Source: an uncultured Planctomycetaceae bacterium (GTDB taxonomy: Bacteria > Planctomycetota > Planctomycetia > Isosphaerales > Isosphaeraceae). Taken from it: a stretch of 64,000 nt of DNA. The stretch covers positions 1,664,001-1,728,000 of the forward strand of contig CAWIAD010000001.1 of assembly GCA_963833985.1 (NCBI GenBank), written 5' to 3'. The first letter of the stretch is position 1, and every line of letters begins with the position of its first letter. The notes under the pieces are model-generated. The model worked only from the letters and a program-made list of their open reading frames with translations, searched no databases and had not been told where the DNA came from. Made by a program: the position numbers and the translations under genes. Of the stretch, positions 53,290 to 64,000 are shown in pieces.

Positions 53290-53352
53290 GGAAAGTGTGG
53301 CCCAGCCGCCCTCGGCTGGGAACGACAGCCGAGGGCGGCTGCCCCACTTTCC
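53290..53352. repeat. REP-like long inverted repeat
   Basis: Perfect 16-bp arms CAGCCGCCCTCGGCTG (53303-18) / CAGCCGAGGGCGGCTG (53326-41) plus outer GGAAAGTG/CACTTTCC. Confidence 0.85.
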
Positions 53353-53584
53353 AGGTGGTGTGGACCGATTTAGACGGCCAGGACTCCCCGCATCCCCGCG
53401 AACACGAGCGGGAGAGCCGGATCGGAACCAGAGCGGCTCGGGAATTCCTTTCACGAGCCATTGGACCCTCGGTCGGCACGACTTTAGAATAGTCCGCGGT
53501 AGCTTGCACTCATCATGGCGGCTCGGCTGGCTCAGGCTTCTCGTCAGGCCATTGAGAAGTGGCGTGGACCTCGGGTTCCAAGTA

Positions 53585-56426
53585 ATGACCCCCGAAGATC
53601 TCGCTCGAAAAAACATCGATCGCCAGCTCGCGCAGTGCGGCTGGCTCGTGCAGAATCGCGATGCGATGAACATCTCCGCTGCGCTTGGGGTGGCCGTGCG
53701 CGAGTTTGTCATGCGGACCGGCGAGGTCGATTATCTGCTGTACGCGGGCGGGAAGGCCGTCGGGGTCGTGGAGGCCAAGCCAGGGGGGCATACGCTCACC
53801 GGGGTGGAGGGGCAGTCGTCCAAGTACTCCGGCGCGCTGCCCTCTGGCGTGCCCAACTGGGGAGCGCCTCTGCCGTTCGCTTACGAGAGCACCGGCACCG
53901 TCACCCAGGTCACGAAGCTGCTGGAGCCCGACGCCCGCAGCCGGGAGGTCTTCACGTTCCACCGACCCGATGAGCTGCTCCGGCTGGTGAAGCTTGACGC
54001 CCAGGTGCGGGGCAGACTCAAGGCCCTGGCGCCGATCGACGCCGCGAATCTCTGGAACGTTCAGCGCCAGGCGATCGAGAACCTGGAGCAGTCGCTCGCC
54101 CGGAACCGCCCGCGCTCGCTCATCCAGATGGCCACCGGGTCGGGCAAGACCTTCACAGCCGTCAACACCGCCTACCGGCTCATCAAGTTCGGCGGGGCGA
54201 AGCGAGTGCTCTTCCTCGTCGATCGCAGCAACCTCGGGCGCCAGACCTACCGCGAATTCCAGCAATTCGTGAGCCCGGTGAACGCCTACAAGTTCACCGA
54301 CGAGTACCACGTTCAACTGCTGAACTCGAACACGATCGCCCCGACGAGCAAGGTCGTCATCACCACGATCCAGCGCCTTTACTCGACCCTCAAGGGCGAG
54401 GAGTCGTTCGACGAGGCCGCCGACGAGCAATCTCAATTCGAGCTCGCCACCAGCCTGGTCAAGGAACCGCTGCCGGTCGTCTACAACGAGCGAATCCCGA
54501 TCGAGACCTTTGATTTCGTCATCGTCGATGAGTGCCACCGCTCGATTTACAACCTCTGGCGCCAGGTGCTCGACTACTTCGACAGCTTCCTGATCGGCCT
54601 GACCGCCACGCCGACAAGGCAGACCATCGGCTACTTCAACAACAACCTCGTGATGGAATACGGCCACGAACAGGCCGTCGCGGACGGCGTGAACGTCGGC
54701 TTCGATGTCTACCGCATCCGCACCCAGATCACCGAGCAGGGGGCGACCCTTGAGAGCGAACCCGGAAAGTTCATCCCGCGCCGCGATCGACGCACCCGCG
54801 CGAAGCGTTACGCGGAGCTGGATGACGACTTGACCTACACGGCCGGCCAGCTCGACCGGGACGTGGTTGCCGAGGACCAGATCCGCCTCGTGGTTCGCAC
54901 GTTCAAGCAGCGCCTGTTTACCGAGATCTTTCCCGGCCGTACCGAGGTGCCGAAGACGCTCGTCTTCGCCAAGGATGACAGCCATGCCGACGACCTCACC
55001 CGCATCTTCCGGGAAGAGTTCGGCAAGGGGAACGAGTTCGTCCAGAAGATCACCTACCGCACCGGCTTCATTCCGGTCGAGCGCGAGGTCAAGAAGGCCG
55101 ACGGGACGACCGTGAAGGTGAAGGACTGGAAGAAGGTCTCCGACGCCAAGCCCGAGGAGATTCTCCAGGGGTTCCGGAACTCGTACAATCCCCGGATCGC
55201 CGTCACGGTGGATATGATCGCTACCGGCACGGACGTGAAGCCGCTGGAATGCCTGGTCTTCATGAGGAACATCAAGAGCGCTGCGTATTTCGAGCAGATG
55301 AAGGGCCGGGGCGTGCGGGTGGTCGACGTGAACTCGCTGCGGAGCGTCACGCCCGACTCGACCGCCAAGACGCACTTCGTCATCGTCGACGCGGTGGGCG
55401 TTTCCGAGCAGGGCAAGTCCGAGACGAAGCCGCTCGACCGCCAGCCTTCGGTGCCGCTCGACAAGGTTCTTGGCCTGGTTGCCTCGGGCGTCGCATCGCC
55501 CGAGGTCGTCTCGACCCTCGCCGCCCGGCTGACCCGCCTGGATCGCCAGTTGAACGACGGTGAACGCGAGCTGCTTGGTCAGCAGGCAGGCGGCCAGGCA
55601 CCGGCCCAGCTCGCCGCGAACCTGCTGCGCAGCCTTGACCCCGATGCCCAGGCGGCAAAGGCAAGCGAGGTCTTCGCGCTGGCCCCGGGTCAGGAGCCAA
55701 CCGAGGGGCAGCTCGACGACGTGCAGGAGACGATGACCGCCGAGGCGTTGAAGCCGTTCCACAACCCGAAGCTGCGCGAGCTGCTCCTCAACCTCAAGCG
55801 AAACCACGAGCAGGTCATCGACGAGATCTCGCAAGATGCGCTGCTCCAGGCAGGGTTTGATGCGGCCGCCCTGGAAAAAGCGCAGGCGCTCATCAAGAGC
55901 TTCAAGGACTTCATCGAGGGCCACAAGGACGAGCTTGAAGCCATCCAGATCCTCTACAGCCGCCCGCACCGCGAGGGTCTTCGGTTCCGCCACGTCAAGG
56001 ACCTTGCCGCGGCGCTCAAGAACCCACCCCTGGCGGCGACACCGGAGCGGGTCTGGCAAGCCTACGAGGCAACAGAGCCTCAGGCGGTGAAGGCGAAGGG
56101 CGGCAAAGACGTGGTGGACCTGATCGCCCTGGTGCGCCACGCCCTCGACCCGCAGGAGCCCCTTGTCCCCCTACTCCAGCACGGTGCAGGAGCGTTACGA
56201 TCAGTGGCTCGCCGAGCAGGCACGGAAGGGCACCGTCTTCACCGAAGAGCAGCGCCACTGGCTTGACGCCATCAAGGATCACATCGCCAAGAGCCTGCGC
56301 ATCGACGAGGACGATTTCGACGAGGTCCCCTTCAACACGATCGGCGGCCTGGGTCGGGTCCACGACCTTTTCGGGGAGCGCTTGCCGGTGATCCTTGACG
56401 AGCTGAATAGGAGGCTGGCGGCGTGA
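53585..56426 (+). CDS. hsdR: Type I restriction enzyme R subunit (EcoEI-type); frameshift near 56170
   Basis: DYLL..VEAK nuclease, MATGSGKT, DECHRS, GLTATP, TGTDV, QMKGRG; C-terminal FTEEQ..WL..IKDHI in the next frame after a C5 run. Confidence 0.92.
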
Positions 56427-58105
56427 ACGACGGGCCGGAGGAAGAGAAAAAACGGATGCAGGGCGAGAGCCAACCCGACTTGCCACCGCTTCCAAAGGGA
56501 TGGATCTGGGAGAGTCTCGAAACCATCTCACAAATCGACGGCGGCATTACAAAAGACCAGAAGCGCCGTTCGGCGGCTACAGCCAGGGAAGTTCCGTACC
56601 TCCGGGTGGCAAACGTGCAGCGCGGCTTCCTCGACCTGCGCGAGATCAAGACAATCGTGGCCGATGAGAAGGAGATTTAAACGCTCCGCCTCCGGTAAGG
56701 GGATGTCTTGTTCACTGAGGGGGGCGACCGAGACAAGTTGGGACGAGGGTGGGTCTGGAACGCGGAGATCAGCGAGTGCATACACCAAAATCACATTTTT
56801 CGTGCGCGTCCAGATGATAAGAGAATCGATCCGAGGTTTCTATCCTATCACGGCAATCACTTCGGACAGGTCTGGTTTACTCGAACCGGCAAGCAAACGA
56901 CGAACCTCGCATCAATTAACAAAAGTGTGTTACGTCGATTTCCAGTTCCCGTTCCCCCCTTGAACGAGCAGCGCCGCATCGACGCCAAGATCGAAGAGCT
57001 TTTCTCCGACCTCGATGCCGGGGTCGCCGCGCTGGAACGGGTGCGAGCGAACCTGAAGCGGTATCGAGCCGCCGTGCTCAAGGCAGCGGTGGAGGGCAAG
57101 CTCACCGAGGAATGGCGGGCGCAGCACCCCGACACCGAACCCGCCTCCGTCCTCCTCGACCGCATCCTCACCGAGCGCCGCCGCCAATGGGAGCAAGCCC
57201 AACTCGCCAAATTCGCCCACGCTGGCAAACAGCCCCCGAAGGGGTGGCAAGCGAAATATGAGGAACCGGACCCGCCGGATGCTCGTGGCCTTCCCTCGTT
57301 GCCAGGGGTATGGCGATGGATGAGGCTCGATTCGCTCGCCTCAATAGAGGGAGGGACCACGAAGGATCAAAAGCGGGCTCGCACTCCGACTACCTGAGAA
57401 GTGCCCTACCTGCGAGTCGCGAATGTCGAGCGTGGGCGATTGGAGCTTGGTGAGATCAAGACAATTCTTGCTGATCAGAAGGAGATTGAGGCTTTGCGAC
57501 TTATGAAGGGCGATGTCTTATTCACCGAAGGCGGAGACCGAGACAAACTTGGAAGAGGCTGGGTTTGGAACGAGGAAATCCCTGAGTGTATTCACCAGAA
57601 CCACGTCTTCAGGGCAAGGCTCATCGATGGGTCAGCAGAGCCGAAGCTCGTCTCTTATCACGGGAACTCTTTCGGACAGGAGTGGTTCACGAAAAACGGA
57701 AAACAAACGACCAACCTGGCCTCGATCAACAAGGGCATCTTGAGCCGTTTCCCCATCCCAGTTCCTCCAGCCCAGGAACAAGCACAGATCGTTGCCGAGG
57801 TTGAGCGCCGCTTATCAATCGTTGACAGGATCGAAGCCCAGGTGAACGCCAACTTGAAGCGTGCCGCTCGACTGCGCCAGGGCATCCTGAAACGAGCCTT
57901 CGAGGGCCGCCTTGTGCCGCAAGACCCGACCGACGAGCCCGCCGACAAGCTCCTGGAACGCATCCGTCAACAGAGACACACGCCGAAAGCTGCCACAAAG
58001 AGCCGCGCGGACTCACGTCGTCGGCGCTCGCCCGTCGATGTACAATCGGAGATGCCATTTTTCGACGAAGGAACTCGAGCCATCCGGAAAGGGGGAACAC
58101 CATGA
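56423..58105 (+). pseudogene. hsdS: Type I RM specificity subunit with three in-frame stops
   Basis: LPKGWIW, PPLNEQRRI, PPAQEQAQIV, LKRAFEGRLVPQDP; stops TAA 56678, TAA 56696 and TGA 57395 all lie in one continuous frame. Confidence 0.9.
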
Positions 58106-59052
58106 GCAATCGCATCGAGAAGGTTGTGCTCTCCAGCCCCCATCCGCATGGGGATCGACTGCCCCCCCACGCCGTGGGCCAGGCGCTGGTGTTGGTCCCT
58201 GAGCTAGTGCGGCAGTCGGTCGACATGGTGTTCCGGGGACAGAGCGCTCCCAGGGGCAGACGCCCCCACTGGCTCAAGGCTGCCGCGGATATCGCGCTCG
58301 TGGATGTGTCGGGAGGCGAGACCTCGGTCCTCACTTTCGAAGCCCCGACCTTGGGCGAGGCCGCGCCGGAGTTGTACTGGCAGGGGGAATTCCCGTGGAC
58401 CGACCAGCCGGATGCAGCGGACACCGGCTTCGACCTCCTCGGAGACGTTCTGACGGACGTAGCCCGCGAGAATGCCGAGAGCGATCGCTTCGATGCGCCG
58501 CTTTTGGAGAGACTGGGCGAGACGCGCAGGATTTTCAACGGTGCCTATTCCGAGCTCGCGATCATCAGCCACCGCCACGGAGTCGATGACCCCGCCTTGC
58601 TGAATCCCGCCAACCTCGAAATCGCCCGGCAGCTTCACGACCGCACGCCCCGCCCGCAGGCCGCCATCATCGTCGGCAAGCTCGACATGATGCGCCAGAG
58701 CACGCAGACGTTCGCGCTGATCATGGACGATGGTCAGGAAGTGCGTTGCGTGCTGCTGGATGACGATGTCGAGATGTTGAAGCCGCTATTCAATCAGCGC
58801 GTCGCCGTCTCAGGCCGCGTCGTTTTCCGCGTCTCGGGCCGAATCCTGCGGATGGAGGCGGAATCCGTTCGACTTGCCGTGCCTACAGACGCTTTCTTCG
58901 CCCGTCTGCCCCGCCCCAACGCCCAGAGATTCGACCTCCGGCGCATGGTCCGCGAACAAGGCTCCAAGCGCGGCCTCGCCGCGATCATGGGGAAGTGGCC
59001 GGGTGACGAGACCGACGAGGAGATCGACCAGTGGCTCCGGGAAATCAGTTGA
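58102..59052 (+). CDS. Uncharacterised 316-aa protein; probable OB-fold-like domain and antitoxin-like acidic C-terminus
   Basis: Intact ORF coupled to the hsdS stop; beta-rich IVGKLD..VRC..VAVSGRV region; tail GKWPGDETDEEIDQWL directly before the PIN gene. Confidence 0.75.
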   Translation: MSNRIEKVVLSSPHPHGDRLPPHAVGQALVLVPELVRQSVDMVFRGQSAPRGRRPHWLKAAADIALVDVSGGETSVLTFEAPTLGEAAPELYWQGEFPWTDQPDAADTGFDLLGDVLTDVARENAESDRFDAPLLERLGETRRIFNGAYSELAIISHRHGVDDPALLNPANLEIARQLHDRTPRPQAAIIVGKLDMMRQSTQTFALIMDDGQEVRCVLLDDDVEMLKPLFNQRVAVSGRVVFRVSGRILRMEAESVRLAVPTDAFFARLPRPNAQRFDLRRMVREQGSKRGLAAIMGKWPGDETDEEIDQWLREIS

Positions 59053-59062
59053 TGGCCGTCCC

Positions 59063-59497
59063 GTGACCTACCTTCTCGACACGAACATCATCATTCACCT
59101 GATACGTAAGTCGACCCTCGGGCTCGATGTCGATCGCGCTTACAGTCTCACGGCCTCGAGAACGAGAAACCTCATCAGCGTGGTCTCCGTGGGGGAACTG
59201 CTTTCGTTCGCCACGCGGCGGAACTGGGGAGCCGGGAAGATTTCAGCCCTGGAGGATGCCCTGGGGGAGCTTCTTTGGATTGACATCAACGACCGGGCCG
59301 TTCTTGAGTCCTATGCCCAGATCGAAGCGTTTACCCTGTCAAGCGGACGGAAGCTGGGGCAGAACGACCTATGGATCGCAGCATCCACGGCCGTCACTGG
59401 ATCGACCTTGTTGACGACCGACCGTGACTTCGACCACTTGAATGATTCGAAACTGCAACGAATCTGGATCGATCCGAACCAAGGCAAGACGCCATGA
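59063..59497 (+). CDS. PIN-domain (VapC-like) ribonuclease
   Basis: YLLDTNII, SVVSVGEL, NDLWIAA, LLTTDRDF: all four conserved acidic positions present. Confidence 0.92.
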   Translation: MTYLLDTNIIIHLIRKSTLGLDVDRAYSLTASRTRNLISVVSVGELLSFATRRNWGAGKISALEDALGELLWIDINDRAVLESYAQIEAFTLSSGRKLGQNDLWIAASTAVTGSTLLTTDRDFDHLNDSKLQRIWIDPNQGKTP

Positions 59498-59662
59498 GCA
59501 CCGACACCCAGCAAGTCGTCAGCAAAGTCTGGAACTTCGCCCACGTGCTCCGGGACGAGGGCTTGAGCGACATGGCCTACGTCGAGCAGATCACCTTTCT
59601 GCTGTTCCTCAAGATGGCGGACGAGCAGACGAAGCCGCCCTATCATCGCAAGCCGATCGTGC
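59494..59662 (+). pseudogene. hsdM: N-terminal stub of type I RM methyltransferase
   Basis: VVSKVWNFAHVLRDEGLS...YVEQITFLLFLKMADE is the EcoEI-type HsdM N-terminus; it breaks after about 56 codons. Confidence 0.88.
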
Positions 59663-59879
59663 TGCCCGGCTGCGCCAGGGCATCCTGAAACGGGACTTCG
59701 AGGGCCGCCTCGTGCCTCAAGACCCCACCGACGAGTCCGCCGATAAGCTCCTGGATCGCATCCAGCTCCGGGGAGCGGGAGCACTCCCTGTCACGATCGG
59801 TCGTCAGAAGCGATCGCGGAGCCCGTTGCGAAACAGTTCCAAGGGTCACGCACTCCGGCCTCGGGGTGAGGACAAATGA
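59658..59879 (+). pseudogene. hsdS: C-terminal remnant of a second hsdS
   Basis: RAARLRQGILKRDFEGRLVPQDPTDESADKLLDRI, a diverged copy of 57860-57965. Confidence 0.85.
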
Positions 59880-59920
59880 TGAGTCATGAGGTCGAAATTG
59901 AGTGCGGCGATGTTCCGCGA

Positions 59921-60118
59921 TCAGGACGACCTTCCTTCCGGGGTCATCTGTCCCTGGAATTGACTGGGGTTGGCCCGCGGAACTCCCTTGACCTCCTCGA
60001 CGATGAGCTGGGCGACCGGCATCCCGGGCCGAAGCAGGATGTTGGTCGGGCCCAGGTTGATCATCTCCAGTGTAAGCGTCCCTGCGAATCCAGGGTGGAC
60101 CGTCGGGGCGGTGAAGTG
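59921..60118 (-). pseudogene. dcd: dCTP deaminase C-terminal fragment
   Basis: Manual translation: HFTAPTVHPGFAGTLTLEMINLGPTNILLRPGMPVAQLIVEEVKG...FQGQ..*; the N-terminal part is missing. Confidence 0.8.
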
Positions 60119-60272
60119 GTGTGCGTGAGCAGGCTAAGCGACGCGAAATCAGCGATTCCTGAGCAACATCGCTGAGGGTACCAACAAAATTCCCCTCGAA
60201 GAGCCTGGTCACTTGATCAAGCTTCCCGAGGGGTGTACTCCGTGGTTTACCACAACAGCGGAGTACTCGACC

Positions 60273-60857
60273 ATGTATCATGATTTACCCCGGACCGCCA
60301 GGCTCTGGTCGTTTCTTTGGGCTGTCGACCAGCATCTCGCAGAGGAAACCCGCAAGCAAGCATGTTCATGTGGCGGCCGCCTGCACGCCGCCAACTATCT
60401 CCGCAAGCCACGCGGCACTGCCGTCCAGCTACCCGAGCAAGAATGCCTCAGACTGAGCTTCTGCTGCGATCGCGAGGGCTGCAGGAAGAGAGTCACACCG
60501 CCGTCGGTGCGCTTCCTGGGCCGCAAGGTCTACCTGGGCGCGATCGTGATCCTCATCAGCGCCATGCGGCAGGGACCCTCGCCACGCCGCGTCCGCGAGC
60601 TTTCCACACGCTTCGGCGCCGACCGCCGGACCATCGCCCGCTGGCAGGTCTTCTGGCGCGAACGCTTTCCTCAGACACCATTCTGGAAGGTTGCAGGCGC
60701 CCGGTTGGTGCCGGTCCTGGAGATCCTCTCCCTTCCCTACTCACTTGTCGACGCCTTCCTCTCCCGCCATCGCATCTGCAAAGGGTGGACGCTCCTGCTG
60801 CGGTTTCTCGCACCGATCACGATCCCCGGCGGCCTGCGAATCGAGGTCTCGCGATGA
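60273..60857 (+). CDS. Transposon-associated Cys-rich (Zn-binding) / HTH-like protein
   Basis: CSCGGRLH..SFCCDREGCRKR; GADRRTIARW HTH-like segment; GGAG RBS. Confidence 0.75.
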   Translation: MYHDLPRTARLWSFLWAVDQHLAEETRKQACSCGGRLHAANYLRKPRGTAVQLPEQECLRLSFCCDREGCRKRVTPPSVRFLGRKVYLGAIVILISAMRQGPSPRRVRELSTRFGADRRTIARWQVFWRERFPQTPFWKVAGARLVPVLEILSLPYSLVDAFLSRHRICKGWTLLLRFLAPITIPGGLRIEVSR

Positions 60858-60953
60858 TCGCTTTCCACCCGCAGAAGATGCTCGTCGCCGATTTTGATCC
60901 GCCGATTTATAGAGGTTGTCACGGTCCCTTCACCCGACTTGTGAGGAGATGTG

Positions 60954-62427
60954 ATGACTCAAAGACACCCCTGTTCAACCGCTGCCTTGTGGGCACGGTT
61001 TCGGTTCTCCGTGGTGGGCTCGCTCCTGAGCTCTCCCCCTGCGCGGATCGCTTCAGACAGCGATCTGCTCCCTTGCCGAAAAGACCTGGTCGCATCCTGT
61101 GACGGGGCGCGATGTCCGCGTCGCGGCCGCCACCATCGCGCGCTGGTACTACACGGCGCTCCACCAGCCTGACGACCCGGTCGCCGCCTTGCGTCGTGCC
61201 GTGCGGAAAGACTGCGGAAAGATCTCGCTGGCGGCGACCCTCGCCGAGCGACTCCATCTCCAGTATCGCGATCACACGGACTGGAGCTATCAACTGCACT
61301 ACGACAACCTCGCCGCGCTCTTGAAGGCCGATCCCTCACTGGGGCGGCTCCCCTCCTATTCCACGATCAAGCGTTTCATGCAGGCTCACGGCCTGGTGCG
61401 CAGACCGAGGCTCCGGCCCGGCGGACGCCCTGGCGAAGTCCGCGCCCAAGAGAGGCGTCAGACACGGGAAATCCGCAGCTACGAAGCCACCCATGTCGGA
61501 GCGCTCTGGCATCTCGATTTCCACCACGGATCGCTCAAGGTGCTCACTCCCGGCGGCCAGTGGCTGCGGCCAATCGCGCTGGGCATCCTCGATGACCACT
61601 CACGACTGTGCTGCCACGTTCAGTGGTATCTCTCGGAGACCGCCGAGGACCTGGTGCACGGACTCTCCCAGGCGATCCAGAAACGGGGCCTGCCGCGTGC
61701 GCTGTTGACCGATAACGGCTCCGCGATGGTGGCCGAGGAAGTCACCGAAGGGCTCTTGCGTCTGGGCATCGTCGCAGAGCGAACGCTCCCTTATAGCCCG
61801 TATCAAAACGGCAAGCAGGAGGCGTTCTGGGGCACGCTCGAGGGGCGGCTCATGAAGATGCTCGATGGTGTCAGGGAATTGACCCTGGAATTGCTCAATG
61901 AGGCAACCCAGGCCTGGATGGAAATTGAGTACAACCGCGCCGTGCACCGCGAGACCGGCAGCTCGCCGGTCGACCGCTTCGCCAAGGCCCCCGATGTGCT
62001 TCGCTCGAGCCCTTCGAGTGTAGCGCTGCGTGCGGCATTCCGCCTGGAGACCAAGAGGAGCCAGCGTCAAAGCGACGGCACCATCTCACTGGAGGGGAGG
62101 CGCTTCGAGATTCCGGCAAGGTACCGTCACTTCCGCGCAGTGACCGTCCGTTACGCCCGCTGGGACCTCGGCCGGATCGATCTGGTCGACGAGCAAAGTG
62201 GAACCGTCCTGGCTCCCATTTATCCCCTCGACAAAGCCGCCAACGCCGACGGCCGCCGGGCCGTAACCGGGTCCGGTGGCACCGAGGTGCCGTCCCCAGA
62301 GCAGCGGCGCGACGCCGGCGAACTGCCACCCCTCCTGAAAAGGATCCTCCAGGAGTACTCGGCCACGGGCATGCCGCCGGCCTATTTGCCCAGGACATCC
62401 CCGAAAGACAACGGAGAACCCTCATGA
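60954..62427 (+). CDS. DDE transposase/integrase (rve core, Mu/TnsB-like C-terminus); frameshift near 61045
   Basis: WHLDFHH, ILDDHSR, LTDNGS, PYQNGKQE, EYNRAVH, DGTISLEG; N-terminus WARFRFSVVGSLL in the adjacent frame. Confidence 0.9.
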
Positions 62428-63269
62428 ATAGCAAGAAACTGCTGGCACTCTATGGGCTGAAATGGAACCCGTTTTCACCCGAGCTTCCTCCCGAAGCACT
62501 GCTGGCGCCCCCCAGGATCGAGCAATTTGCCTGGCGCGTGGAACAGCTGGTCCAGGAAGGAGGCTTCGCGCTGATCACGGGTGAGTCGGGCACCGGCAAA
62601 TCGGTGGCGCTGCGGATTGTGGCCGGGCGGCTGGCGGCGCTGCGGGATGTCACCGTCGGTGTGATCGAGCGACCCCAGTCGAAGAGCCCCGACTTCTATC
62701 GGGAGCTGGGGGACATCTTCGCGGTGAAGCTGGCACCGCACAATCGCTGGTGCGGGTTCAAGGCGCTCCGCGAGCGGTGGAAAGCCCACGTGGCCTCCTC
62801 GCGGATCCGCCCGGTGCTGCTGATCGACGAAGCCCAGGAGATGAGCCCTGAGGTCCTCTGCGAGCTGCGTATTCTCTCCAGCGCCGACTTCGATGCCACG
62901 TCGCTTTTGACCGTGATCCTCTCGGGAGATGAACGACTGCTGGAACTGTTGCGGCACGAAGATCTGGTGCCCCTGGGCACCCGGATTCGCACGCGACTGG
63001 TCACCGAGCCCGCCACCCGCGAAGAGCTCCTGGAGTTGCTTCAACACGCGCTGGCCAAGGCCGGCAATGCCGCGCTCATGACGCCCCAGCTCGCAGAGAC
63101 ACTGGTCGACCACAGCGCGGGGAACTACCGTTTGCTCATGATTATGGGAGGTGAGCTCTTGGCCCATGGCATGGCGCACGAAATCGGGCAGCTTGACGAG
63201 AAGTGCTACCTCGAGGTCTATCAGCCGCGAGGCCCGCGCCCCGCGCTGAAGAAGAAAGCGAAGGTGTGA
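62424..63269 (+). CDS. ExeA-family AAA+ ATPase (transposition helper)
   Basis: YGLKWNPF, GESGTGKS, LIDEAQ; ATGA overlap with the transposase. Confidence 0.9.
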   Translation: MNSKKLLALYGLKWNPFSPELPPEALLAPPRIEQFAWRVEQLVQEGGFALITGESGTGKSVALRIVAGRLAALRDVTVGVIERPQSKSPDFYRELGDIFAVKLAPHNRWCGFKALRERWKAHVASSRIRPVLLIDEAQEMSPEVLCELRILSSADFDATSLLTVILSGDERLLELLRHEDLVPLGTRIRTRLVTEPATREELLELLQHALAKAGNAALMTPQLAETLVDHSAGNYRLLMIMGGELLAHGMAHEIGQLDEKCYLEVYQPRGPRPALKKKAKV

Positions 63270-63271
63270 CG

Positions 63272-64000
63272 ATGGCGACCAGTGGCGAGCAAGTGCTTCC
63301 GGTGGTGCGTGTGGCCGAGCTTCCCAGCGATGAGCTCGCGGAGCGATGGCTGGTGGAGCAGCTCTGGTGTGCCCACGCGGTGGGCGTCATCGGCGGCGCT
63401 CCGAAGTGCGCCAAGACGTGGCTGGGGCTGGACATGGCCCTCTCCGTAGCCACGGGCACACCATGCCTGGGCAAGTATGCCGTACCGGAGCCGGGACCGG
63501 TTCTGGTTTACCTGGCTGAGGATGCGCTGCGGGCTGTGCGCGAACGTATCGAGGGAATGGCCCGGCATCGCGGTCTGGATCTCGACGAGGTGTCGATCCA
63601 CGTGATCACGGTCCCGGTGCTCCGGCTCGATCACGATCGAGACCGCACGCGGCTGTGGGAGACAGTGCGGGGGCTTCGGCCTCGGCTGCTGGTGCTGGAT
63701 CCCCTGGTGCGACTTCACGGCATCGACGAGAATCATGCTGGCGACGTCGCCGAATTACTCGGGTATCTGCGGTCGTTGCAGCGTCAGCTTGGCCTGGCGG
63801 TTCTGCTGGTGCATCACACGCGGAAGAACGCCGCGGACGGTGTTGCCGCCGGTCAGGGCCTGCGTGGGTCGGGTGACATACATGCCTTCGGCGACTCGAA
63901 CCTGTATCTCCAGCGCACGAAGGAGCACCTGATCCTCTCCAGCGAGCACCGGTCGGCGCCGGCAGTAGCGCCTGTTTATCTGGAGCTGGTCGCCACCGAC
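63272..64000 (+). CDS. AAA_25 / RepA-like RecA-fold ATPase (partial; not in ORF track)
   Basis: Manual translation: WLVEQLW, GGAPKCAKT, VYLAED, LVLDPL..DEN, LVHHTRK, LRGSG; open to the window end. Confidence 0.85.
   Translation, partial: MATSGEQVLPVVRVAELPSDELAERWLVEQLWCAHAVGVIGGAPKCAKTWLGLDMALSVATGTPCLGKYAVPEPGPVLVYLAEDALRAVRERIEGMARHRGLDLDEVSIHVITVPVLRLDHDRDRTRLWETVRGLRPRLLVLDPLVRLHGIDENHAGDVAELLGYLRSLQRQLGLAVLLVHHTRKNAADGVAAGQGLRGSGDIHAFGDSNLYLQRTKEHLILSSEHRSAPAVAPVYLELVATD

Follow-up and report, generated by a model that had tools for sequence, protein, structure and literature searches.

A Tn6049-type transposon of an uncultured planctomycete with a RepA-like helicase gene and a candidate origin in an exchangeable fourth slot

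This study focused on a putative transposon at the right edge of a 64,000-nucleotide stretch of DNA (the window) from an uncultured Planctomycetaceae bacterium. It is a real, recently active element of the Tn6049 type, a type that has been named but is unstudied, and it is 4,226 bp long (window 60120-64345, contig 1724120-1728345), with a right end that lies outside the window. Its fourth gene specifies a helicase-like protein of the RepA type, and an inverted, iteron-like repeat follows this gene directly. From these sequence features we consider it plausible, if somewhat short of evenly balanced, that the helicase loads at the iteron site and helps to replicate the element during replicative transposition. 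The preliminary description of this DNA had listed four open reading frames with the last three tightly coupled, and all four were found where it placed them, with the 4-bp overlap between the transposase and ATPase genes and the 2-bp gap between the ATPase and AAA_25 genes (Table 1).

Table 1. Features of the element, in window coordinates.
Feature	Position	Strand	Remarks
Left target duplication	60115..60119	+	AGTGG, 5 bp; right copy at 64346-64350, outside window
Element, in-window part	60120..64000	+	right end at 64345 on the window scale
Left end	60120..60175	+	begins TGTGCGTGAGCA
ORF1, Cys-rich with HTH	60273..60857	+	194 aa; DUF6431-like
DDE transposase (rve), TnsB/MuA type	60954..62427	+	~491 aa in relatives
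ExeA-type (AAA_22) ATPase	62424..63269	+	281 aa; 4-bp ATGA overlap with transposase gene
RepA-type SF4 helicase-like ATPase (AAA_25)	63272..64225	+	317 aa; extends 225 bp beyond the window end (64000)
Right end	64297-64345, outside window		pair of repeats (core CGATTATC), 24 bp apart; terminal CTCTCA

Six full copies, more than 99.7% identical, are present in the genome and define the ends of the element. Its termini are TG...CA, the left end at 60120 is exact, and the right end and target duplication, which the preliminary description had left to be found, were recovered at 64345 and as AGTGG on both sides. The insertion has split a minus-strand dCTP-deaminase-like gene. Target duplications of 5-7 bp flank four of the six copies, and one of them was verified against an empty allele. 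Copy 6 shares its left flank with copy 4, while new DNA adjoins its right end; this is the structure that replicative or intramolecular events would produce, although gene conversion between repeats is an alternative explanation. The lack of a duplication was considered as a mark of replicative movement and discarded as not discriminating, since helicase-less elements (such as L201) may also be without one, in a comparison where ends could not be called for several groups of elements. Shallow contigs of four sequencing runs contained no circular joints, which is evidence neither way, and GC skew was too weak for a strand-bias test. No gene for TnsA or a resolvase was found within the ends, the four genes filling the 4,226 bp with no match to either family.

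The catalytic D, D and E residues of the transposase are invariant across 36 aligned homologues, and the best solved structure in a profile search was ShTnsB (E 1e-12). All six assembled copies have a break in the reading frame of this gene near 61041, a feature that the preliminary description does not mention. The gene is in frame at 112 of 122 other loci, and the 10 exceptions all come from a single collection of long-contig MAG records (10 of its 17 loci, against 0 of 36 others), with the breaks spelled differently between copies of one genome. Because of this confinement and these differing spellings, the frameshift is probably an assembly artefact arising from systematic sequencing error; programmed recoding or real inactivation are unlikely causes, given the many in-frame loci and the record-specific exceptions. 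The two extra bases also occur in one short-read contig each of two runs (X3 and X4), a weak signal that possibly stems from relatives. An intact helper transposase was not found in the source genome. Mobilisation of the frameshifted copies in trans is still conceivable, because two copies with the same transposase insertion occupy different sites.

The ATPase gave distant profile matches to MuB (E 4e-5) and ShTnsC (E 2e-4), and all 51 of its homologues carried the AAA_22 domain, while none of the 51 matched the IstB family at E 0.001. The N-terminal part of ORF1 is zinc-ribbon-like, with conserved cysteines at C31, C33, C64/65 and C70. A TniQ-like role in target selection had been suggested for this protein and, though not refuted, is unsupported: there were no Pfam matches to TniQ among 70 ORF1 homologues, the top structural match was the N-terminus of ISCth4 (Z 4.7) in a list from which TniQ was absent, and Foldseek returned no match.

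The earlier assignment of the fourth gene product as a RepA-like SF4 protein was borne out by its sequence match to RepA, the only PDB match obtained (1g8y, E 8e-11), and by its intact motifs. Invariant in 25 of 25 sequences are K48 (Walker A), E83, D143 (Walker B), H181-H182-K185, L197-R198-G199-S200 and R227, a set that we take to represent Walker A, the catalytic Glu, Walker B, H3, H4 and the Arg finger. Over 16 relatives, dN/dS was 0.177 for the helicase gene and 0.170 for the transposase gene; by these estimates the former is under purifying selection as strong as that on the latter. A C-terminal winged helix is probable, judging from weak matches (E 0.009), scattered Pfam hits and an Atlas score of 0.81. 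A single-sequence structure prediction of the protein did not succeed (pLDDT 36). The nearest relatives outside transposons (30-35%) were fused to Prim-Pol, DnaB-N or NrS-1-type domains in all three cases scanned, and our own reading of their neighborhoods revealed integrase-like ORFs nearby.

The inverted repeat occupies positions 64241-64275, outside the window and just past the helicase stop codon (64225), and consists of two TTCC-core units, a spacer and two GGAA-core units, with perfect arms of 14 bp. It is a candidate origin or helicase-loading site. A repeat of this pattern follows the helicase gene at 78 of 91 non-redundant loci; none of 17 helicase-less elements has it, and among 5000 random windows it occurred in 8. 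The pattern was designed on these same loci, 13 of which it misses, and the figures should be read accordingly. It had no matches in viral contigs. The spacer is often AT-richer, but is not AT-rich in this copy, and CTA/TAG occurs within the site at 50 of the 78 loci. SaPI origins are found directly after rep, with two or more opposed iterons on each flank, and a C-terminal winged helix binds them (PMC9371898); the helicase with its downstream opposed iterons (at least two on each side of the spacer) has the same layout. With an origin-like site beside the helicase gene, the idea that the protein aids replication is strengthened; the preliminary description had put this idea forward, and the intact helicase and adjoining site speak for it, while replicative transposition itself is a step that we infer.

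A stand-alone CHC2 zinc-finger gene (PF01807, E 1e-9) lies beyond the site at 58 of 108 loci that were long enough, duplicates included. Its product is a 104-aa primase zinc-binding domain, with a dN/dS of 0.16. Many sister elements carry this gene but the present one does not, and a primase catalytic domain was found in none of the elements examined. Tentatively, the ancestral form of the module included the stand-alone zinc finger, which has been lost here. The site is 70 bp from the right end in this element and several hundred bp from it in elements with the zinc finger, and thus lies at no constant distance from the predicted fork.

In 40 of 49 informative genomes the fourth position is taken by the helicase gene, and this gene stands directly behind the ATPase gene at 78 of 80 metagenome loci and in 12 of the 13 closer hits in a phylum sample. 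The fourth slot otherwise holds an ORF of 60-78 aa. The helicase is also found behind distant transposase clades, which indicates that it is a swapped module. On the transposase tree, the content of the slot changes 14 times where three changes would be the minimum possible, and the helicase tree also shows exchange. The direction of gain and loss is tentative, because the trees (72 and 60 hand-picked rows) came from quick searches with SH-aLRT support only and midpoint rooting. The family comprises thousands of protein clusters from many phyla. Helicase-less members, such as Tn6049 and a second element present in four or more copies in a single genome, are active, which shows that transposition does not generally require the helicase. 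The four-gene core proposed earlier is thus accepted in part: the AAA_25 gene lies inside the ends of the element and travels with the transposase, but it belongs to an exchangeable module and is not a fixed core gene.

The closest known relative is Tn6049 (Cupriavidus metallidurans CH34; plasmid pHS87a), which shares with the present element its first three genes and their order (36% identity for ORF1, 54-55% for the transposase and 57% for the ATPase), the 4-bp overlap between transposase and ATPase genes, TG...CA ends and short duplications, and is nested within the same transposase clade with 100% support. One of its two published 12-bp ends is identical to the left end described here, while the right end of the present element (TGAGAGTG...) has diverged from the 12-bp TGTGC... 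ends of the type. Tn6049 is shorter (3.5 kb), and its fourth ORF, of 71 aa, is unrelated to the helicase and is not accompanied by an iteron repeat. With the ORF of about 70 aa replaced by a 317-aa helicase and the repeat, the present element is a variant and not Tn6049 itself. Twelve copies of Tn6049 are present in CH34 (PMC2864759), its module has been described as uncategorised (PMC6210171), and no mechanistic study of it was found in the literature. The core, being of the Tn6049 type, is not new, which qualifies the earlier suggestion of a poorly described class.

Likenesses to other systems are more distant. Tn5053/Tn402 (tniA-tniB-tniQ-tniR) is likewise a four-gene, TnsA-less DDE element with an ATPase, but the present element has no TniQ match and no resolvase. 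The IS21 group is characterized by a DDE transposase and an ATPase, TG...CA ends, end repeats and duplications of variable length. IS21 (IstA/IstB) shares these traits with the present element, but the transposase scored 54.9 bits against the IstA model NF033546 (cut-off 160; query lacking its first ~28 residues), the ATPase is not of the IstB family, and there are two extra genes. Mu transposition depends on host replication proteins. Phage Mu (MuA/MuB) and type V-K CAST (TnsB/TnsC) resemble the element in the distant profile matches, in having binding sites in end repeats and in lacking TnsA; the element differs from them in the absence of TniQ, Cas or phage genes and in its variable duplications (4-7 bp, compared with 5 bp). 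It also has its own helicase and origin-like site, where Mu and V-K CAST use host replication proteins. TnsA-less elements make cointegrates by replication (PMC11406308). The helicase itself matches RSF1010 RepA in sequence, and its layout, a probable C-terminal DNA-binding domain with opposed iterons directly after the gene, is that of SaPI and SCCmec. SaPI Rep, however, is of a different helicase superfamily, and SaPI and SCCmec rely on integrases or recombinases and have a primase gene, whereas here the module is found within a DDE transposon and without a primase catalytic domain.

In the reading that we prefer, the transposase would bind the repeats at both ends, and the MuB/TnsC-type ATPase on target DNA would help it to join the 3' ends to the target. 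Strand transfer would leave a branched (Shapiro) intermediate, to be replicated or trimmed; such an intermediate is expected by analogy with known TnsA-less systems, since the element has neither TnsA nor a resolvase. The exchangeable slot after the ATPase gene would have been filled by a replication-initiation module from satellite-like integrative elements, the helicase of which may load itself on the internal iteron site and open the duplex, with host primase and polymerase copying the element. Self-loading would make the element less reliant on host restart proteins across many phyla. What we infer here is that the protein acts as a helicase and binds the site, that transposition is replicative, and that these are linked. 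Set against this reading are the active helicase-less members and the nine of 49 informative genomes without the helicase, the absence of a primase catalytic domain and here also of the zinc finger, the varying distance between site and end, and the four of six copies that are simple insertions with duplications.

Helicase and iterons might instead form a true origin, with an excised circle or in-place over-replication raising the donor number independently of strand transfer. The gene-plus-site layout of satellite origins, the primase-helicases of integrative elements as closest relatives, and the often AT-richer spacer with its CTA/TAG all fit, but we regard this as unlikely: the element has no primase catalytic domain or recombinase, the helicase had no match in 72,556 plasmids at E 1e-20, and among viral contigs only three loci were found, two distant and one a short match. 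To our knowledge, enzymes of the TnsB/MuA type do not form circles, which also counts against it. Somewhat less probable still is that the fourth slot holds a target selector comparable to TniQ, TnsD or TnsE, with a helicase-fold protein that directs the ATPase towards forks or single-stranded DNA, while the repeat serves as a regulatory operator. This would suit a slot that begins 2 bp after a TnsC/MuB-type gene and is filled by either a helicase or a short ORF, and the several copies that lie in or beside other mobile DNA; it leaves the co-travelling primase zinc finger and the origin-like site unexplained, and the duplications show no evident common target.

Slightly lower again we would rate the module as a passenger with no role in transposition, retained because it benefits itself or the host, for instance by interfering with phage or plasmid replication. 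The constant place of the gene and its close linkage to the ATPase gene, even in clades far apart, the absence of other cargo here and a selection equal to that on the transposase argue against this, even though the slot content has been gained, lost and exchanged repeatedly (the 14 changes) and helicase-less members spread well. It is very improbable that the AAA_25 protein is an ATP-driven remodeller, acting for instance in removal of the transpososome, and that the repeat is a terminator. Helicase-less elements too have a hairpin after the fourth gene, but all SF4 motifs are invariant, the DNA-binding H4 included, the repeat arms keep their sequence over distant clades with no T run after them, and a terminator scan omits the site.

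No description of the helicase form was found in the openly accessible literature, as judged from titles and the openings of abstracts. What is known of how TnsA-less systems hand a branched intermediate over to replication comes mainly from Mu and a few others, where the hand-over proceeds via host proteins. A compact 4.2-kb element with its own helicase and origin-like site makes this question directly testable, as natural variants exist without the zinc finger (this element) and without any of the module (Tn6049, which is present in a cultured strain). It is possible, though we would hold it with some reserve, that widespread bacterial DDE transposons have repeatedly acquired three parts from satellite-like elements, namely a self-loading helicase, the origin that goes with it and a detached primase zinc finger, such that replication starts inside the transposon, which then either resolves its own intermediate without host restart proteins or persists as a replicating circle. 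If so, it would be a partly self-replicating transposon.

All four reading frames of the transposon proposed from sequence alone were present at the positions given, and the boundaries of the element could be fixed because six full copies (>99.7% identity) in the source genome (G000; 10.2 Mb, 2 contigs) define both ends. The right end, left for retrieval by the preliminary description, lies beyond the window, and target duplications of 5, 6, 5, and 7 bp were found at four of the six copies, with an empty allele elsewhere in G000 confirming the 7-bp duplication. The AAA_25 gene ends 120 bp inward of the right end, and the concern that it might lie outside the element therefore does not hold. 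The insertion seen in the window interrupts a dCTP-deaminase-like gene. Besides the full copies, G000 contains three fragments of the left end and a single diverged remnant. Two copies are interrupted by the same insertion sequence (10 copies in G000) at an identical position in the transposase gene, yet differ in their flanks and target duplications, which suggests movement in trans. The element lies within a type I restriction-modification island, several broken frames of which may be assembly errors.

Coordinates of the element and of features connected with it (C1 and C2, contigs of G000; L numbers, compared loci)
Feature	Location	Description
Transposon	window 60120-64345	4,226 bp; termini TGTG... 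/ ...CTCA
Short loss in transposase gene	window 60930-61110; loci L168-L209	in GC dinucleotide run after CCCCCT
Restriction-modification island	window 53297-59900; L001 9117-14620	HsdR, split HsdS, HsdM, two additional HsdM N-terminal fragments
PIN-domain gene of island	window 59066-59497	
Partner of PIN-domain gene	window 58102-59052	316 aa, unassigned family
Diverged remnant of the same family (L002)	G000:C2, about 4486190-4495870	both ends, part of ORF1, helicase tail, and iteron repeat flank about 9 kb of other DNA
Insertion sequence in two copies	G000:C1:286876-288232; C2:1409372-1410728	1,357 bp
Copy 6	G000:C2:5875174-5882080	no target duplication
ORF at or after fourth slot, L149	8924-9208	94 aa

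The transposase was 53.7% identical to that of Tn6049, a transposon of Cupriavidus metallidurans CH34, over 96% of the query, while ORF1 and the ATPase were 36% and 57% identical to their counterparts. Gene order is the same in both, and one 12-bp Tn6049 end, as given in PMC4739549, is identical to the left end of this element. On sequence grounds, its core places the element in the Tn6049 type. In a quick tree, Tn6049 fell within a helicase-less subclade of 9 rows (98%), nested in a mostly helicase-bearing clade of 59 rows. Strain CH34 carries 12 copies of Tn6049 (PMC2864759), the module of which is described as one that 'could not be categorized' (PMC6210171); a passage on Tn6049 in PMC13192273 gave nothing more. 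The idea of a poorly described class survives in part: the core is already known, whereas no description of the form with helicase and candidate origin was found in the article passages searched, including those of two Tn7 surveys (PMC8649781, PMC10293859).

The catalytic D, D, and E of the transposase were invariant in 36 aligned homologues, and the best solved-structure match of its profile was ShTnsB (E 1e-12); the ATPase profile matched MuB and ShTnsC, and neither protein matched the IS21 models at the cut-offs applied. The element is predicted to work like a Mu/TnsB-TnsC element and, by the membership tests applied, is not IS21, Tn7, or Tn5053. ORF1 resembles DUF6431 clusters and has a confident predicted fold (pLDDT 82), with a weak best structural match to the ISCth4 transposase N-terminus (Z 4.7, rmsd 4.2, 108 residues). 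None of 70 ORF1 homologues matched TniQ in Pfam. We read ORF1 as a zinc-ribbon/HTH protein that binds DNA and assists the transposition core, and it may still have a part in targeting.

Conservation of the helicase with the transposase was borne out from two directions. Among 80 helicase-seeded metagenome loci, the ATPase lay directly upstream in 78, the other two contigs starting at the helicase gene, and all four genes were visible in 38. In the transposase-seeded set (the best 79 loci among at least 575 stretches, drawn from 60 named genomes across many phyla), 40 genomes had the helicase in the slot after the ATPase and 5 had a small ORF there; 4 had something else or nothing, and 11 were too short to score. 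Helicases of the same subfamily (47-55% identity) are also found behind ATPases whose partner transposases share only 27-30% identity with that of the window, and in a quick tree the transposon helicases formed one clade (97%; for two of its rows no transposase was detected) within which helicases of near and distant transposase clades intermingle; for these reasons the helicase appears to be an old, exchangeable module of the fourth slot. The helicase and transposase have similar dN/dS values (0.177 and 0.170, 16 relatives) and all SF4 motifs are invariant (25 sequences), by which measures the helicase is not decaying. In helicase-less members (L112-L116, L210, L213, L233, L238, L241) the fourth ORF is 60-78 aa, mostly with a DEAA-like motif and a C-terminus of D-x-F or PF; ORFs of this kind appear in two transposase clades that lie far apart, and the six scanned had no Pfam match. 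Other ORFs fill or follow the slot at L227 (167 aa, after the ATPase) and L149, likewise with no Pfam match.

An inverted repeat with 14-bp arms and TTCC/GGAA units begins 16 bases 3' of the helicase stop, with no T run after it. Its pattern, derived from the very sequences in which it was counted, matched 78 of 91 non-redundant loci with the helicase; none of the 17 elements that lack the helicase contained it, and of 5000 random windows 8 did. This layout closely matches that of SaPI origins, which, according to PMC9371898, have at least two opposed iterons per side immediately 3' of rep, bound by a C-terminal winged helix (an assignment that is weak for the present helicase); the arrangement in SCCmec is similar (PMC7581432). 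Downstream of the helicase, 58 of the 108 loci that extend far enough (counting duplicates) encode a stand-alone CHC2 primase zinc finger, which is 104 aa in close sisters; a further 64 loci were too short to score, and right-end repeats came after the zinc-finger gene at loci where they could be read. Within the subclade of this element, 14 of 22 rows carry the zinc finger, deep rows included, and so it has probably been lost in this lineage. No primase catalytic domain was seen in the elements examined. Outside transposons, the nearest relatives carry the helicase domain as part of a fusion, with either a primase-polymerase or a DnaB-N domain. Between helicase and right end, distant clades (L149, L151, L153, L177, L186, L194, L214, L226) share a non-coding GGATAG-core block with several hairpins, possibly a structured RNA or second replication signal. 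At L069, L084, L096, L108, L180, L198, and L225, the interval from zinc-finger gene to right-end repeats holds a conserved motif, about 20 bp long with the core GAAGAGGCCAC; no such block precedes the right end of the window's element, which has no zinc finger.

Both TnsA and a resolvase are missing from this element. In TnsA-less elements, the branched intermediate becomes a cointegrate by host replication (PMC11406308). This step is where a helicase able to load itself at a site within the element would be of use, a reading we favor tentatively, at somewhat under even probability. Against it, helicase-less members transpose well, the majority of copies are simple insertions, and the distance of the repeat from the element end varies. 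Copy 6, in which the left flank of copy 4 is kept and the right junction is new, fits the replicative reading, but gene conversion can also produce it. The shared flank (2,664 bp) consists of a DUF4277 transposase element, presumably IS1634-like, plus about 417 bp. On the right, copy 6 abuts the terminal 17 bp of another end of that DUF4277 element; copy 6 is a rearrangement product.

Helicase and site might instead constitute an autonomous origin, which we consider unlikely, and a role of the slot in target selection seems less likely again. That the module is a passenger is slightly more doubtful still, and a non-helicase role of the AAA_25 protein is very improbable.

Returning to the transposase, the GC run near 61041 is two bases short in all six assembled copies, and G000 yielded no other transposase belonging to the family. 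The gene was in frame in 112 of 122 other loci having both parts; the ten exceptions all came from one long-contig MAG record set (10/17, versus 0/36 others), with spellings that differ between copies within one genome. Since the exceptions are confined to one record set and variably spelled, the frameshift is very probably a systematic consensus error. Recurrent assembly error can make active transposases look dead.
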